Source of the DNA: Bacilli bacterium | GTDB taxonomy: Bacteria; Bacillota_I; Bacilli_A; RFN20; CAG-826 | NCBI GenBank assembly: GCA_045601085.1 | Contig: JAZRZD010000002.1 | Coordinates: 6,106-70,105 of the forward strand | Reading direction: 5' to 3' | Length of the DNA: 64,000 nt | Part shown: positions 17,856 through 32,174 of the stretch, piece by piece | Position numbering within the stretch: the stretch's first letter is position 1 | Layout of the letters: every line of letters begins with the position of its first letter | Made by a program: the position numbers and the translations under genes | The notes under the pieces: model-generated | Databases searched by the model: none | What the model was told of the DNA's origin: nothing | What the model saw: only the letters and a program-made list of their open reading frames with translations

Positions 17856-18101
17856 TTAATAACTAATCTCATCTTCATTTGTAGACTCAATAATTTCAGA
17901 CAAAAGTTTATTATTAATTTTATAATTCAACATTTCTTCAATATTTAAGAAAGAAGAGTGCTCGGTATGGTTTTCATTGCCGATGTAATATCTAACTTCA
18001 TCATTAAGTTCGGCCTTGGTAAAAGAATAAAACACATCATCTATATTGAATTCTATGTCGAAACCGTGAATTAATAGATCTTTAAATTTTTTAATTTCCA
18101 T
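17856..18101 (-). CDS. Putative immunity protein A
   Basis: Small acidic ORF overlapping toxin A stop; start moved to MEIKK (AAAGGAG RBS); terminator hairpin follows (~17803-17853). Confidence 0.6.
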   Translation of the reverse strand: MEIKKFKDLLIHGFDIEFNIDDVFYSFTKAELNDEVRYYIGNENHTEHSSFLNIEEMLNYKINNKLLSEIIESTNEDEISY

Positions 18102-18411
18102 ATGCATGTGCTCCTTTCTTGCGATCGATATGGTTATCAACGATATTAATTATATGTGTATGTGGAACTTTATGTACTTCCGGTGTGCCGTGATCCGTAT
18201 AATCAACATCTTTCCAGGCTCTGCCTTTATCGTCATAATGTCTGATTCTTACAATTTTTCCATTATCATCTATTTGTGTAATGGTGCTATTTGGTGTGTG
18301 AACGTCAGGCAAGTGATGTGGGTGATTATGATTTTTAAGAATAATTGATTTCCCAAACCATTTTCTACTCTTTAGGTCTTTTGTTCCAAATAATGGTGAT
18401 CTACCTTTCAT
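18091..18411 (-). CDS. Putative polymorphic toxin A (His-rich nuclease-like domain)
   Basis: RHYDDKGRAWKDVDYTDHG...HKVPHTH motif recalled from polymorphic-toxin C-terminal domains; N-terminus MKGRSPLF. Confidence 0.6.
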   Translation of the reverse strand: MKGRSPLFGTKDLKSRKWFGKSIILKNHNHPHHLPDVHTPNSTITQIDDNGKIVRIRHYDDKGRAWKDVDYTDHGTPEVHKVPHTHIINIVDNHIDRKKGAHAYGN

Positions 18412-19105
18412 CTTGATTCACCTCAGAAAGTTTAAGAAGTTTGTCTTTCTTATTTTCTTTCATTGTGTAGGAATCATATTGATAAATAGGTATTCCTTTT
18501 AATCTAGCTAGGCCAAATATCTCATCAGATGCTGGACCATATACAATTATACCAGTTGGTTCAAGTGTATCCACTACTCGCATGACTTGATCCGCAAATA
18601 TATAACGATTATCAAGACGATTAGTAAATCCATGTGTACCAATGGCAATAAGTGTATGTTTAGGAAAAGCTTCTAAACAAGATAATGTTCTATTATCACC
18701 TATTCTAACATTTGGAATGATTTTAATTCCTTGATTTGCAAAATAATAGGTGATAGCTAGATTAAGATATATTTGACTCTTTTGAACCACTAAAGGCATA
18801 TTATCGTAAGGACTTGGATCAATACCTATAACCATTTGATATTGTTGTAGTTTTTCAACATATCTTATTGGATTATTTAAAATAGGGGTAAATCCAGCAT
18901 CATTACAATAAAAGCACATTGCAGTAATACTAGGGTCCACTACATCTTGTCTTCTATCCCACTGTATTATTTCTTTTGGAAGGTCAGTGGCAACCATCCA
19001 CTCTTCGATTATTGGAAACTCGTCGGTTTCAGTACGTCTAGTGCCATCGATGAGGTAAGCTAAATAGACGTCCCTAACATAGGGAGTTTTTGATTTTCTG
19101 AGCAT
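18401..19105 (-). CDS. DUF4417 family protein A
   Basis: FYCND...P..Y...L.....IG.DPSPY.NMP...GIKIIPNV pattern of DUF4417; paralogue at 30477. Confidence 0.8.
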   Translation of the reverse strand: MLRKSKTPYVRDVYLAYLIDGTRRTETDEFPIIEEWMVATDLPKEIIQWDRRQDVVDPSITAMCFYCNDAGFTPILNNPIRYVEKLQQYQMVIGIDPSPYDNMPLVVQKSQIYLNLAITYYFANQGIKIIPNVRIGDNRTLSCLEAFPKHTLIAIGTHGFTNRLDNRYIFADQVMRVVDTLEPTGIIVYGPASDEIFGLARLKGIPIYQYDSYTMKENKKDKLLKLSEVNQDER

Positions 19106-19145
19106 ATTTCGCTCCTTTCTGCACGTTTTTCGTGCTAATTAAAGC

Positions 19146-19219
19146 GAGATATGCTACTATTCATTTATCCGATGTGCTTCAGCATATCTCTAATCGTGAC
19201 CATTCGCACTGGTTACGAT
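19146..19219 (-). promoter_or_regulatory. Conserved double-hairpin leader upstream of DUF4417 A
   Basis: 10-bp stem with TGCGAA loop plus GAGATATGCT/AGCATATCTC stem; homologous to 30356-30428. Confidence 0.7.
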
Positions 19220-19284
19220 TTTTTTAGCTTTATTATTTTTTATTGGCGTTGCGCCTTCTCCTTTCTTGTTCCAAATCATGTCAT

Positions 19285-20049
19285 TTATTTCATAATAGTT
19301 CCCTCCCTTTTATGATTAATTTCTAAAGCATCAAAAAGAGATTGAGAAATGATTCCCAAGGTTAGAAATCTCCATGCCATAGCGGTGCCAGAAACATTCA
19401 ATTCTTCTGCAACAGCATAAATCATCTTCCAAATAAGTTTTCTTTGCCTTGCTCCCAACCTTTGTCCTGGCATAATTTCGGCATGCTTTTGCTTATAAAG
19501 CTTTCTAACGAATTGAGCCGGCATTAAAATATAAGAAGTATACTTATTCGCGTGATATTCCATCCAATCTTTTTGAGTTCTTCTTTTAACAATTAAATTT
19601 TTACCATCCAAAAGTTTTTCATCATTAATATATGTTTCTCCATCAAGGAGTGCTTTGTTAACATATAAATCGAACTGTGAATGTGCACTTTCGTGAATCA
19701 AAGTAAATCCAATAATATGTTCATCATTTTTGCAAGCTTCTAGGTCAACACAAATTGTTCCTTTTTCAAAAAATCTTAAATCAGGTTTATTCTCTTCATT
19801 CATGACCGGTACGACACCACTAGATATTGCTATCATCCCATATCTTGAATTATTTGGCGATAATCTTTGAAATTGAACCTTTATCTTTAAATAATTCTCA
19901 ATAAAATCATCTACATTTAATGCAAAAGGAACTTTGAAATAATCTTTCTTGTAATCTTTTAATTGAGCATAAGCAAAAGCTTCAAGTTCTTCATCTTTAA
20001 CTTGAAGTACACCATATTCGTTATAAGCATGCTTATCCCAAATAATCAT
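19285..20049 (-). CDS. ImmA/IrrE-family metallopeptidase
   Basis: FTLIHESAH HExxH, WMEYHANKYTSYILMP; adjacent to XRE gene. Confidence 0.85.
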   Translation of the reverse strand: MIIWDKHAYNEYGVLQVKDEELEAFAYAQLKDYKKDYFKVPFALNVDDFIENYLKIKVQFQRLSPNNSRYGMIAISSGVVPVMNEENKPDLRFFEKGTICVDLEACKNDEHIIGFTLIHESAHSQFDLYVNKALLDGETYINDEKLLDGKNLIVKRRTQKDWMEYHANKYTSYILMPAQFVRKLYKQKHAEIMPGQRLGARQRKLIWKMIYAVAEELNVSGTAMAWRFLTLGIISQSLFDALEINHKREGTIMK

Positions 20050-30313: not shown

Positions 30314-30355
30314 TAATTAGTAAAAGAGTAATTATAAAAAAGAGAAAGTAAAAAA

Positions 30356-30428
30356 ATCGTGACCAATGCGAATGGTCACGATAAGAGATATGCTGAAGCA
30401 CTCTCGGTAAGTATATAGTAGCATATCT
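30356..30428 (+). promoter_or_regulatory. Conserved double-hairpin leader upstream of DUF4417 B
   Basis: Perfect ATCGTGACCA/TGGTCACGAT stem and AGATATGCT/AGCATATCT stem. Confidence 0.7.
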
Positions 30429-30476
30429 AATTTTTGATTTGTATTTCCAATTTTGGAAGAAAGGTTAAATTTTATT

Positions 30477-31184
30477 ATGTTACACAAATCTAAGTCACCC
30501 TATATAAGGGACGTCTATCTTGCTTACCTCATCGATGGCGCTAGACGTACAAAAACGGATGAATTTCCGATAATCGAAGAGTGGATGGTTGCCACTGAGC
30601 CTCCAAAAGATATTATTCAGTGGGATAGGAGATGGGATGTTAAAGAGCCATCTAATATAGGAATGTCATTTTATTGTAATGATCCAACATTTCAACCAAT
30701 TTTATCCAATCCAAAAGCCTATACAGAAAAATTAAGGGAATATGAGCTCATAATCGGTGTTGATCCAAGTCCTTATGATAATATGCCACTTTGGGTCCAA
30801 AAAAGCCAAATAGGTTTAAATTTAGGTATTACATATTATTATGCATCTCAAGGGATTAAAGTTATTCCAAATGTTAGACTAGGCGATAATCGAACATTAT
30901 CATCATTAGAAGCTTACCCTCATAACACTTTAATAGCGATTGGCACTAACGGTTTCATCAAAAAAACACAAAATCGTCTTATTTTTGCTAAACAAGTACA
31001 GGTAATAGTAGATACACTAGAGCCATCCGGAATTTGTGTATATGGTCCTTTACACAATGAAATATTTGATTATGTAAGGCTAAAAGGAATTCCTATTTAT
31101 CATTATGAGTCCTATGCAATGAAAGAAAATGCTAAAGATAGGGAGCGTAAACTTTCTGAGTGTGATATAAATGAAAGGAAATAG
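30477..31184 (+). CDS. DUF4417 family protein B
   Basis: Aligns end to end with DUF4417 A; start moved to MLHKSK. Confidence 0.8.
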   Translation: MLHKSKSPYIRDVYLAYLIDGARRTKTDEFPIIEEWMVATEPPKDIIQWDRRWDVKEPSNIGMSFYCNDPTFQPILSNPKAYTEKLREYELIIGVDPSPYDNMPLWVQKSQIGLNLGITYYYASQGIKVIPNVRLGDNRTLSSLEAYPHNTLIAIGTNGFIKKTQNRLIFAKQVQVIVDTLEPSGICVYGPLHNEIFDYVRLKGIPIYHYESYAMKENAKDRERKLSECDINERK

Positions 31185-31716
31185 CCCATTATTCTCTAGT
31201 TTCACAGCCATTAGTGGTTTAGCAGGGATGTATAGTTCGTATTCTTCTTCGCCACTCAATGGAAATTCACAACCCTATCAAGTTAAATATTCTGTTTATG
31301 CTAAAATGATGAAAAAAGATATCGAACATGGAATTTATAATCCAAAAACTGGATACTCAAAAAATCCAACCGCTCGATATTTGGACTCGATGATTAATGG
31401 CAATTACATCAAAGACAAGCATTACAATAAGCAAATGCCATATGTAATTACTACTGATGGACTAGTAATAATTGGAAGTAGAAATGGTAATGGCAAAACA
31501 CCAAGCAAAACACCCACTCCACACCCAACATTAATCGGTGGGACCGATCCAAAGGTCAAAATGGCTGGAATAGTTGATATTCGTGGTGGGAAAATATATT
31601 CTTACAATAATCAAAGTGGCCATTATCGACCTAATCAGAAATCGATGAAATGGGCTGATGAAGCTTTCAAAAATTACCCTAAACACAATGATTTTAAAGG
31701 AGGAATCATTTTATGA
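31171..31716 (+). CDS. Putative polymorphic toxin B
   Basis: YV..DG..IG...HPTL.GG...V.MAG...I.GG.I..YNNQSGHYRP motif recalled from Rhs/polymorphic toxin tips; N-terminus MKGNSPLF. Confidence 0.65.
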   Translation: MKGNSPLFSSFTAISGLAGMYSSYSSSPLNGNSQPYQVKYSVYAKMMKKDIEHGIYNPKTGYSKNPTARYLDSMINGNYIKDKHYNKQMPYVITTDGLVIIGSRNGNGKTPSKTPTPHPTLIGGTDPKVKMAGIVDIRGGKIYSYNNQSGHYRPNQKSMKWADEAFKNYPKHNDFKGGIIL

Positions 31717-32174
31717 AGAAACAATATAATAACAATATCAATAAAGAATTATTTAGTATTAATTTTCAAGAAGATTTTTCTGAAGCCGAAGTTGAACGAC
31801 TATCAAAAATAGCGAGAGAATTAATTAATGGTTTTGGAGAACAAATAGTTTTTAATAATTGGTTTGAGTATTTAAAAGAATCAATTAATGACAAATATTC
31901 CGCATGGAACTTTATGGTTGCTTTTTATAATTTTGATGGTCACAATTTTAAAATTAAAGATCCATATCCATTCCTTGGATTGTTGTTCAATAAATTAAAC
32001 CTATCATTAAATAAAGAACCATCATCAGATGAAGAAGAATCGATATTTGATACTTTTGATTCGATATATGCTTCTCTCTTAACAAAATCTGGAATAGTTA
32101 CAAAAGACGATTATTTCTACATCAACTTATACAGTGATAATTTATTTCAAATAGCTGTCAAAGAAAATAAATAA
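31713..32174 (+). CDS. Putative immunity protein B
   Basis: Acidic 153-aa ORF with ATGA overlap on the toxin stop, AAAGGAGG RBS. Confidence 0.6.
   Translation: MKKQYNNNINKELFSINFQEDFSEAEVERLSKIARELINGFGEQIVFNNWFEYLKESINDKYSAWNFMVAFYNFDGHNFKIKDPYPFLGLLFNKLNLSLNKEPSSDEEESIFDTFDSIYASLLTKSGIVTKDDYFYINLYSDNLFQIAVKENK

Follow-up and report, generated by a model that had tools for sequence, protein, structure and literature searches.

Polymorphic toxin systems such as Rhs, CdiA, LXG and MafB carry a variable domain behind a constant N-terminus and have an immunity gene immediately downstream (Zhang et al. 2012, PMC3482391); MuF is listed among their modes of trafficking (PMC3482391). We analysed a stretch of 64,000 nt from contig JAZRZD010000002.1 of a Bacilli-type metagenome-assembled genome, hereafter the window, which contains two cassettes, A and B. 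Each consists of a regulatory part, a noncoding leader, a gene of the DUF4417 family (PF14386), a small toxin-like gene (called +1) and an immunity-like gene (called +2). The cassettes are like polymorphic toxin loci in this layout, in domains common to Rhs/HINT-type proteins, and in the displaced and orphan immunity genes that accompany them. They are unlike them in that the constant part of the toxin is only some 8–10 residues long, with no trafficking domain, repeats or releasing peptidase, whereas the constant DUF4417 is encoded by a separate, translationally coupled gene, with no linked secretion system. The evidence given below supports a new class of polymorphic toxin-immunity cassette, with a constant module made of DUF4417 and a short tag, a repressor-peptidase switch and, probably, an antisense RNA.

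Internal proteins of T4-type phages carry a capsid targeting sequence, a short conserved N-terminal peptide found on hypervariable small proteins of a plastic locus. The cassette toxins share such a short peptide, but show no prohead protease site or capsid link, and the bacterial versions come with immunity genes and lie outside prophages. Colicin- and pyocin-type bacteriocin operons are derepressed by stress (the SOS response) under a LexA regulator, and place the toxin gene before the immunity gene. Unlike them, the cassettes encode neither receptor-binding or translocation domains nor a lysis protein, and their XRE/M78 pair is not LexA. With MuF phage toxins there is a common phage connection, since DUF4417 and a tagged effector precede the terminase genes in Streptococcus-type phages, and Ntox24, to which the toxin of cassette A (toxin A) is weakly similar, is one of the domains that MuF toxins carry. 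However, no MuF domain or capsid-protein fusion is present, and the bacterial cassettes are surrounded by housekeeping genes and are not part of prophages.

CapH/CapP consists of a repressor and a peptidase, and lifts the repression of defence operons when DNA is damaged (bioRxiv 10.1101/2022.04.27.489752). Cassette A is similar in having an XRE gene and a gene for an M78 peptidase with the HExxH motif as a pair directly upstream of the operon, with a match to the capP hidden Markov model. In contrast to CapH/CapP, the cargo is a toxin-immunity cassette and not the cyclic-oligonucleotide-based anti-phage signalling system (CBASS) or another known defence, and in cassette B the XRE and peptidase parts are fused and RmrA-like. 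This XRE-M78 fusion, with a small gene next to it, recalls RosmerTA (RmrT/RmrA, PADLOC), but the 140-residue neighbour matches no RmrT model and is followed by the leader-DUF4417-toxin-immunity unit.

Comparison of the two cassettes revealed where the constant part ends. Both DUF4417 proteins scored well above the Pfam gathering score of 28.9 bits, and they are 71% identical over 234 residues. The noncoding DNA 5' of the two DUF4417 genes (about 85 nt) is conserved better than coding sequence, and the DNA similarity of the cassettes stops about 8 codons into the +1 gene. Accordingly, the +1 products have MKG(R/N)SPLF in common and are otherwise unrelated, and the +2 genes (17856–18140, minus strand, and 31713–32174, plus strand) are mutually unrelated. 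A preliminary description of the window had recognised all four of these features: homologous DUF4417 genes, a homologous leader, +1 genes alike at eight N-terminal residues only, and unrelated +2 genes. It had also described a single gene order for both cassettes. All of the genes lie where it had placed them, but the XRE and HExxH peptidase genes are separate in cassette A and fused in cassette B, where an additional gene for a 140-residue protein (29891–30313) is present. The start of the cassette A immunity gene was revised from TTG 18140 to ATG 18101 (81 residues), the most likely start from a comparison of homologues. The +1 gene overlaps the DUF4417 stop by 11 nt in cassette A and by 14 nt in cassette B. 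The spacer between peptidase and DUF4417 is 179 nt in cassette A, and cassette B has one of a like kind. The host genome is small and of low GC content (about 31%; 792 kb in 34 contigs, 75% complete), and a PF14386 search of all of it found exactly two DUF4417 copies, those of cassettes A and B. In the host's family, 31 of 121 genomes carry DUF4417, in one to four copies each.

To see how general this organisation is, 117 bacterial loci were collected, 38 from a scan of one genome per species and 79 from a metagenome scan. The order XRE, peptidase, DUF4417, +1, +2 was found in most of them, and third-party gene calls with precomputed Pfam matches gave the identical five-gene order, with a small tyrosine recombinase adjoining. 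The +1 gene begins with MKG and then diverges in 93 of 108 cases, the consensus of the tag being M-K-G-[KNYRS]-[SN]-[SP]-L-F-[SG]. After clustering, the pairing of +1 and +2 families was scored in 88 loci: all seven +1 families carry the tag, and they pair strictly one to one with seven +2 families (0-0, 1-1, 2-2, 3-3, 4-4, 5-5, 6-7). In six of the seven +1 families the proteins are strongly basic (mean net charge +8 to +15), that of toxin A being near neutral (+0.7), and most +2 proteins are acidic (mean net charge −9.4 for the cassette A family and −11 for the cassette B family). Scoring of DUF4417 neighbourhoods for a short +1 protein with a conserved N-terminus and a variable body, followed by an immunity-like gene, had been proposed in the preliminary description, and these counts give the pattern that it anticipated. 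Judged from the families, toxin bodies and immunity genes are shown to swap as pairs behind the tag.

The spacing between DUF4417 and the +1 gene varies among the bacterial loci (−11, −8, −1 or +3 nt), and the tag is kept throughout. It is retained even in four loci (L011, L019, L028 and L030) that overlap by 1 nt or not at all and differ in the C-terminus of DUF4417. The tag therefore belongs to the +1 protein itself, and dual coding does not account for it. In the Lachnospiraceae loci, the regulator pair is placed after the +2 gene, and DUF4417, toxin and immunity genes remain together.

Some of these loci had peculiarities. In two Eubacterium-type cassettes, a tyrosine recombinase gene (Phage_integrase, about 220 residues; L207:6683-7336 and L208:3415-4077) lies directly 3' of the immunity gene on the opposite strand; this small recombinase may be linked to mobility or inversion. 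Four near-identical low-GC cassette contigs (L008, L022, L025 and L031) were binned as Alistipes, Parabacteroides, Azospirillum and Escherichia coli, for which mis-binning is a more likely explanation than transfer. The DUF4417 gene is interrupted by a stop in L031 and L143. Finally, an Ntox24-like toxin (L005:4695-5039) has, after its tag, a segment SGNISFM..G.KS that is also found in the family-1 toxins of His/Cys type, so that recombination joints may fall beyond codon 8.

The toxin bodies were compared with known domains. The toxin A family comprises 488 clusters at 90% identity, and all of the members listed lack a functional name and a precomputed Pfam domain. Its alignment has the core YxDxxGxxxxDxDYxDHGxPxxHxxPHxH (YxDxxGxxxxDVDYTDHGxPxxHKVPHxH in toxin A itself), in which the Y and three H are invariant. 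Ntox24 is an all-beta predicted RNase of Rhs, type VII secretion system and MuF toxins, also present in type II toxin-antitoxin systems (PMC3482391). It was matched by five of 21 members of the family (best E=1.2e-4), and toxin A matched the C-terminus of phrog_18811, annotated 'toxin' (E=1e-4). Toxin A is a weak, sub-threshold relative of Ntox24, and a predicted RNase of Ntox24-like type.

For the toxin of cassette B (toxin B), a search of 1.8 billion representatives with the family profile retrieved 283 proteins, and the domain (profile positions ~37–172) was often at the extreme C-terminus of long proteins (1554–1683 of 1696 residues, 2012–2133 of 2147, 7410–7520 of 7535). Two of the carriers, P0157 and P0239, contain Rhs repeats (Pfam), and others have an Rhs-core DPxG or a HINT 'VHN' junction immediately preceding the domain. 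Because of this C-terminal position on Rhs/HINT-type long proteins, the body of toxin B was assigned as a polymorphic-toxin C-terminal domain, one that no Pfam model covers. A search of 400 genomes of the phylum found it only as five short, cassette-type copies. Profile searches of the PDB with toxins A and B gave nothing meaningful, and the N-terminal parts of the tagged toxins have no Pfam domain, only the tag of 8–10 residues. These matches show the cassette toxin domains, at the level of similarity, to belong to the pool that exported polymorphic toxins use: of Rhs C-terminal type for B, and an Ntox24-like predicted RNase for A.

Traces of earlier swaps were found near the immunity genes. 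Directly downstream of the cassette A immunity gene, the translation of nt 17678–17794 has upstream stops and the C-terminal motif ...EKKKEHELNNVSFSIKPYFRY; this remnant is, by its similarity, the relic of an earlier toxin/immunity pair at the cassette A site. Elsewhere in the host genome (G000 C16:20784-21229), a truncated A-type toxin stub precedes an intact immunity gene (80–86 residues). The stub has 67 residues, with DHG changed to DLS, and has neither tag nor DUF4417; the locus is flanked by a pyruvate:ferredoxin oxidoreductase-like gene and an ATPase gene. Polymorphic toxin loci typically show such displaced remnants and orphan immunity genes. For the cassette B immunity protein, a search of 5.8 billion proteins gave only 8 close homologues, all of them unnamed. 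With the family pairing, the sequences support an assignment of the +2 genes as cognate immunity to the +1 toxins. A constant anchor with a swappable toxin/immunity pair, as first proposed for the window, is therefore upheld by seven tagged families each with its own +2 family, by a domain B common to Rhs/HINT proteins, and by the displaced remnant and orphan immunity gene.

What DUF4417 does was approached through its structure and its own relatives. With an alignment of 51 sequences, AlphaFold2 gave an alpha/beta model with a predicted local distance difference test score (pLDDT) of 89; the prediction from a single sequence was unusable (pLDDT 40). The best PDB matches of the model are TIM-barrel-like enzymes, at E=0.013 and a template-modelling score of about 0.4. 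In BFVD, the good matches are only other viral DUF4417-like proteins, and phage proteins annotated as queuine tRNA-ribosyltransferase (TGT) match faintly (E 0.07–0.3). D69, D96, S98 and Y82, with several Pro and Gly, are invariant in bacterial and phage DUF4417, which suggests that the protein is an enzyme.

Phage DUF4417 proteins are only 20–30% identical, often with a ParB-CTPase fusion and a methylase annotation, and in Streptococcus phages the gene just before the terminase genes has an overlapping gene downstream. Among 80 IMG/VR loci, the downstream gene starts with MG[GS]RG (the MGGRGA tag) in 68 of 79, and six more have GGRGA after a short extension; the identity of the phage DUF4417 genes with this tag is 20–25%. 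Its spacing to DUF4417 is +5 to +12 nt, and 18 families of tagged bodies were distinguished, one of them similar to the toxin A core. No immunity-like gene follows the tagged gene in these 80 loci. In one tagged family (L070, L077, L082, L088 and L087), the GGRGA tag is internal, being preceded by an N-terminal extension, and a JAB/MPN-like motif HNHPxGxxFSxxD comes after it. Three IMG/VR scans with the DUF4417 subfamily of the window found nothing, so that this subfamily is not in recognised viral contigs.

Other bacterial subfamilies have tags of their own. DUF4417 proteins of less than about 45% identity, a third bacterial group (36–41% identical), go with xTKGxSNxYGN, and Clostridia-type relatives go with MGxGxxGxF/YG, as in a toxin beginning MGTGFHGGFG. 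Comparison of these groups shows that tag type tracks the DUF4417 subfamily in bacteria and phages. This association is the best evidence that DUF4417 deals with the tag. The earlier view of DUF4417 as a dedicated toxin partner agrees with the associations observed, namely strict adjacency, overlap, and the tracking of subfamily by tag type. A specific action on the tag, for example its covalent coupling to a carrier such as nucleic acid, or its processing, would be a speculative proposal, to which we give a low probability. No link of DUF4417 to toxins was found in the literature searched (one DUF4417 paper was not visible), and a search on MGGRGA returned nothing relevant; for the literature that could be searched, the cassettes are an undescribed system, as had been suggested.

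The conserved noncoding element has three hairpins: P1, which an A-run precedes; P2, which is longer and has a conserved loop; and P3, which stands ahead of the Shine-Dalgarno sequence. An Rfam search of nt 17500–32600 gave no match at gathering score or E≤5, except tRNAs. In the hairpin search, G.T and A.C pairs were treated alike, and on the mRNA strand P1 had 41 A.C against 4 G.T pairs. As A.C pairs far exceed G.T pairs on that strand, P1 folds on the opposite one. There it is followed by a U-run, and a terminator scan detected it in both cassettes. In an antisense-orientation alignment of 29 sequences, 98% of P1 cells were paired and compensatory changes were present in 10 of 11 pairs, all controls being far lower. 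P2 covaried less than P1 and did not clearly favour either strand. The antisense strand has, upstream of P1, an invariant TGCTAnTAT (19152–19160, plus strand, in cassette A) that resembles an extended −10 element. P1 and its U-run on this strand are read as the terminator of a probable antisense small RNA of 60–70 nt, which in cassette A would extend from about 19167 to 19227 (plus strand). The 'leader' of the preliminary description is conserved as stated there, but it is more than a leader of the mRNA: the first of its hairpins folds on the opposite strand and is an intrinsic terminator.

A riboswitch-like sequestration of the Shine-Dalgarno sequence or AUG, in which blocking the 5' arm of P2 would free its 3' arm, was rejected, since partition-function folding of 27 leaders gave no consistent change (p=0.47 for the Shine-Dalgarno sequence, p=0.11 for the AUG). 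A small palindrome, TCCCTAACATAGGGA, lies in the first codons of both DUF4417 genes (19071–19085 and 30496–30513; residues TPYVRD) and was flagged on either strand as terminator-like. Its conservation is that of the protein, so it may be coincidental.

Most of the 38 genome loci have an XRE family (c2) ahead of DUF4417, and a peptidase family (c3) is always paired with it. The cassette A peptidase had no Pfam match, and a PDB search was likewise empty. The switch of XRE and ImmA type that had been proposed, which would respond to stress, is backed in its components by the match of the cassette A peptidase to capP, and by those of the cassette B fusion to capH/capP and to 14 RmrA models of PADLOC. 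The fusion also matched antitox_spr1629 of NCBIfam, under the cut-off (E=1.9e-25). The 140-residue protein next to it had no significant match in Pfam, NCBIfam, PADLOC, PHROGs or the PDB; it may be a toxin that partners the RmrA-like gene. A reading of this protein as a PIN domain, made by eye only, was dropped as unsupported, the PDB search being empty. In a set of Lachnospiraceae loci (L024, L026, L029, L157–L166 and L175), the ~150 nt 5' of DUF4417 lack P1 and P2; they contain a promoter with TTGACA, and GTTAGAAnnTAGCGAACA occurs there two or three times and resembles an operator site. In these same loci the XRE/peptidase pair lies 3' of the immunity gene. The loci of three cultured carriers, Eubacterium ruminantium ATCC 17233 (L026), Pseudobutyrivibrio sp. 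ACV-2 (L039) and Lachnospiraceae bacterium AC2012 (L024), are of this kind.

Taken as a whole, each cassette is probably a self-contained, horizontally mobile polymorphic toxin-immunity module, with DUF4417 and the tag MKGxSxLF of about 8 residues as its constant part; we hold this reading, with its deployment steps, with moderate confidence. DNA damage or phage attack would lead the peptidase to remove the XRE repressor, upon which the DUF4417-toxin-immunity operon would be transcribed. Leaky expression would be damped by the short cis-antisense RNA ending at the P1 terminator. Translational coupling would keep the synthesis of DUF4417 level with that of the toxin. With its alpha/beta fold and its invariant Asp, Asp, Ser and Tyr, DUF4417 would be like an enzyme, and would recognise or modify the tag so that the toxin is deployed, and the immunity protein would shield both the producer and its kin. 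As to the target, we prefer the killing of neighbouring cells, that is competition, which we put at an even chance, because the immunity gene is co-expressed downstream of the toxin, an orphan immunity gene exists and there are domains of Rhs type.

Several observations weigh against this module and its mechanism. The match of toxin A to Ntox24 (PF15529; 17.7 bits, E=0.0043) is under the gathering score of 24 bits. No signal peptide, secretion domain or secretion gene was found in or beside the cassettes, WXG100 and Terminase_6N had no match in the host genome (75% complete, as noted), and no phage structural genes were among the frequent families in the flanks of the 38 loci, which consist of housekeeping genes and some defence-type ATPases. 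With neither secretion genes nor phage structural genes around, a toxin of 100–180 residues has no visible entry into another cell. The small toxins had been described as having no recognisable secretion domain, and the Pfam scans, the genome and the 38 flanks all agree with this. Foldseek gave no solved relatives of DUF4417 at E≤1e-3, and a scan of the antisense strand found no consistent sigma-70 −35/−10 pair. Finally, CapH/CapP- and RmrA-like regulators with neighbouring restriction-modification genes are typical of anti-phage defence and not of bacteriocins.

Part of these data could be explained by defence of the abortive-infection or toxin-antitoxin type, in which the cassette acts only in its producer. 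Phage or DNA damage would derepress it, the toxin would outrun or outlive the immunity protein and growth would stop, with DUF4417 as sensor or activator. The capP/capH and RmrA matches, both known from anti-phage systems (10.1101/2022.04.27.489752), fit this possibility, as do the position of the cassettes on either side of a restriction-modification locus with two C5 methylases, the lack of an export apparatus in the 38 flanks and the host genome, and the presence of Ntox24 in type II toxin-antitoxin systems (PMC3482391). The phage versions also have no immunity gene, so that their effectors would act within the infected cell. However, toxin and immunity genes are co-transcribed, in overlapping or abutting frames with the immunity gene downstream, which is the layout of bacteriocins and polymorphic toxins and protects the producer. 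Moreover, a threat from outside would lead one to expect an orphan immunity gene beside a dead toxin stub, and a displaced remnant, the toxin B domain is otherwise found on exported Rhs-type proteins, and no PADLOC model matched DUF4417, the toxins or the immunity proteins. We judge such self-intoxication unlikely, but it is the alternative that deserves most attention.

DUF4417 might instead have no functional link to the toxins, being a landing pad for recombination or having a separate phage-derived role such as DNA modification, in which case the first 8 codons would be merely a joint and an overlap. Phage DUF4417 proteins are indeed annotated as DNA modification methylases and often fused to ParB-CTPase (10.1101/2025.10.10.680097), and most loci show the tag overlapping the C-terminus of DUF4417. 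Yet the tag is kept in the four loci with a 1-nt overlap or none and a differing DUF4417 C-terminus, and three or four DUF4417 subfamilies have each their own tag. The pairing holds in phages, Bacilli and Lachnospiraceae over 20–80% identity, and where the Lachnospiraceae regulators relocate, the DUF4417-toxin-immunity unit stays intact. We consider the absence of a link very improbable.

A programmed +1 frameshift at the conserved ATGAAAGG overlap, which would make DUF4417 the N-terminal carrier of a classical polymorphic toxin, was rejected as scarcely credible: the overlap is conserved as ATGAA(A/G)GG, with the toxin in frame +1 with respect to DUF4417, but every +1 gene keeps its own ATG, the overlaps vary (−11, −8, −1 and +3 nt, and +5 to +12 nt in phages) with no single shift site, and no DUF4417-toxin fusion frame was seen in the 117 bacterial or 80 phage loci.

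The features of both cassettes are listed in Table 1. Between the cassettes are a carboxylesterase lipoprotein, two proteins without Pfam match, two C5 DNA methylases, a helix-turn-helix protein and a tRNA-Arg (28527–28603). The restriction-modification-like block spans nt 23088–28227, with C5 cytosine methylases at 25438–26508 and 26480–27589, the two proteins without Pfam match (495 and 287 residues) upstream of them, and the helix-turn-helix protein at 27613–28227.

Table 1. Positions of the cassette features in the window and the evidence for each assignment.
Feature	Position	Strand	Evidence
Cassette A XRE-type helix-turn-helix repressor, CapH-like (frame extendable to TTG at 20468)	20046..20432	-	Pfam HTH_19/HTH_3; PADLOC HTH_VI E=2.9e-6
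Cassette A HExxH zinc peptidase, ImmA/IrrE/CapP type, motif HESAH	19285..20049	-	PADLOC capP E=3.8e-10; phrog_4031 E=7e-21
Cassette A hairpin P1 and T-run, intrinsic terminator antisense to DUF4417	19192..19227	+	Terminator scan; covariation
Cassette A hairpin P2 (GAGATATGCT ... AGCATATCTC), conserved GAAGCAC in loop	19146..19190	unassigned	Alignments, pair counts
Cassette A hairpin P3 (19121-19135) and DUF4417 Shine-Dalgarno sequence	19106..19145	-	Sequence; covarying hairpins at the same place in other loci
Cassette A DUF4417, 234 residues	18401..19105	-	PF14386 E=1.1e-31, 110.2 bits
Cassette A tagged toxin MKGRSPLF..., 106 residues, Ntox24-like predicted RNase	18091..18411	-	Sub-threshold Ntox24; phrog_18811
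Cassette A putative cognate immunity protein, 81 residues from ATG at 18101, acidic	17856..18101	-	1:1 pairing with toxin family 0; phrog_3711 E=1.9e-5
Decayed 3' remnant, zinc-ribbon immunity gene of another cassette type (His/Cys toxin family)	17678..17794	-	tblastn E=4e-5 to family-1 immunity proteins
Cassette B XRE-helix-turn-helix/M78 peptidase fusion, RmrA / spr1629-like	28849..29898	+	HTH_3 E=8e-18; Peptidase_M78 E=3e-10; RmrA best E=3.8e-38
Cassette B 140-residue protein, family unassigned	29891..30313	+	Same gene at the same place in L038
Cassette B hairpin P1 and T-run, antisense-strand intrinsic terminator	30349..30382	-	Terminator scan; covariation
Cassette B hairpin P2; extended -10-like TGCTACTAT at 30423-30415 on the - strand	30386..30428	unassigned	Alignments
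Cassette B DUF4417, 235 residues from ATG at 30477; TTG at 30453 also open	30477..31184	+	PF14386 E=1.3e-24, 87.2 bits
Cassette B tagged toxin MKGNSPLF..., 181 residues; body ~37-172, motifs PHPTLIGG, SGHYRPN	31171..31716	+	Profile search of long proteins
Cassette B putative cognate immunity protein, 153 residues, acidic	31713..32174	+	1:1 pairing with toxin family 2

DUF4417 is a common family of phages and gut bacteria with no known function. If the reading of the cassettes as polymorphic toxin-immunity modules is true, its link to the tag gives it a testable role, and the cassettes add a class of polymorphic toxins without recognisable secretion domain, and raise the question of how such toxins gain access to their target. 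Should DUF4417 indeed act on the tag, its chemistry would be a way of arming and delivering interchangeable effectors independently of secretion systems, one common to temperate phages (MGGRGA) and to the chromosomal cassettes of gut Firmicutes (MKG, TKG, MGxG). The tagged families include domains that have not been modelled, such as that of toxin B (PHPTLIGG/SGHYRPN), which Rhs proteins also use, and with the antisense-terminator element there is a candidate for a new regulatory RNA. Gut Bacilli with reduced genomes (about a quarter of the genomes of the host's family) and Lachnospiraceae frequently carry the cassettes, which may therefore influence competition between strains, or the conflict of phages and hosts, in the gut and the rumen.

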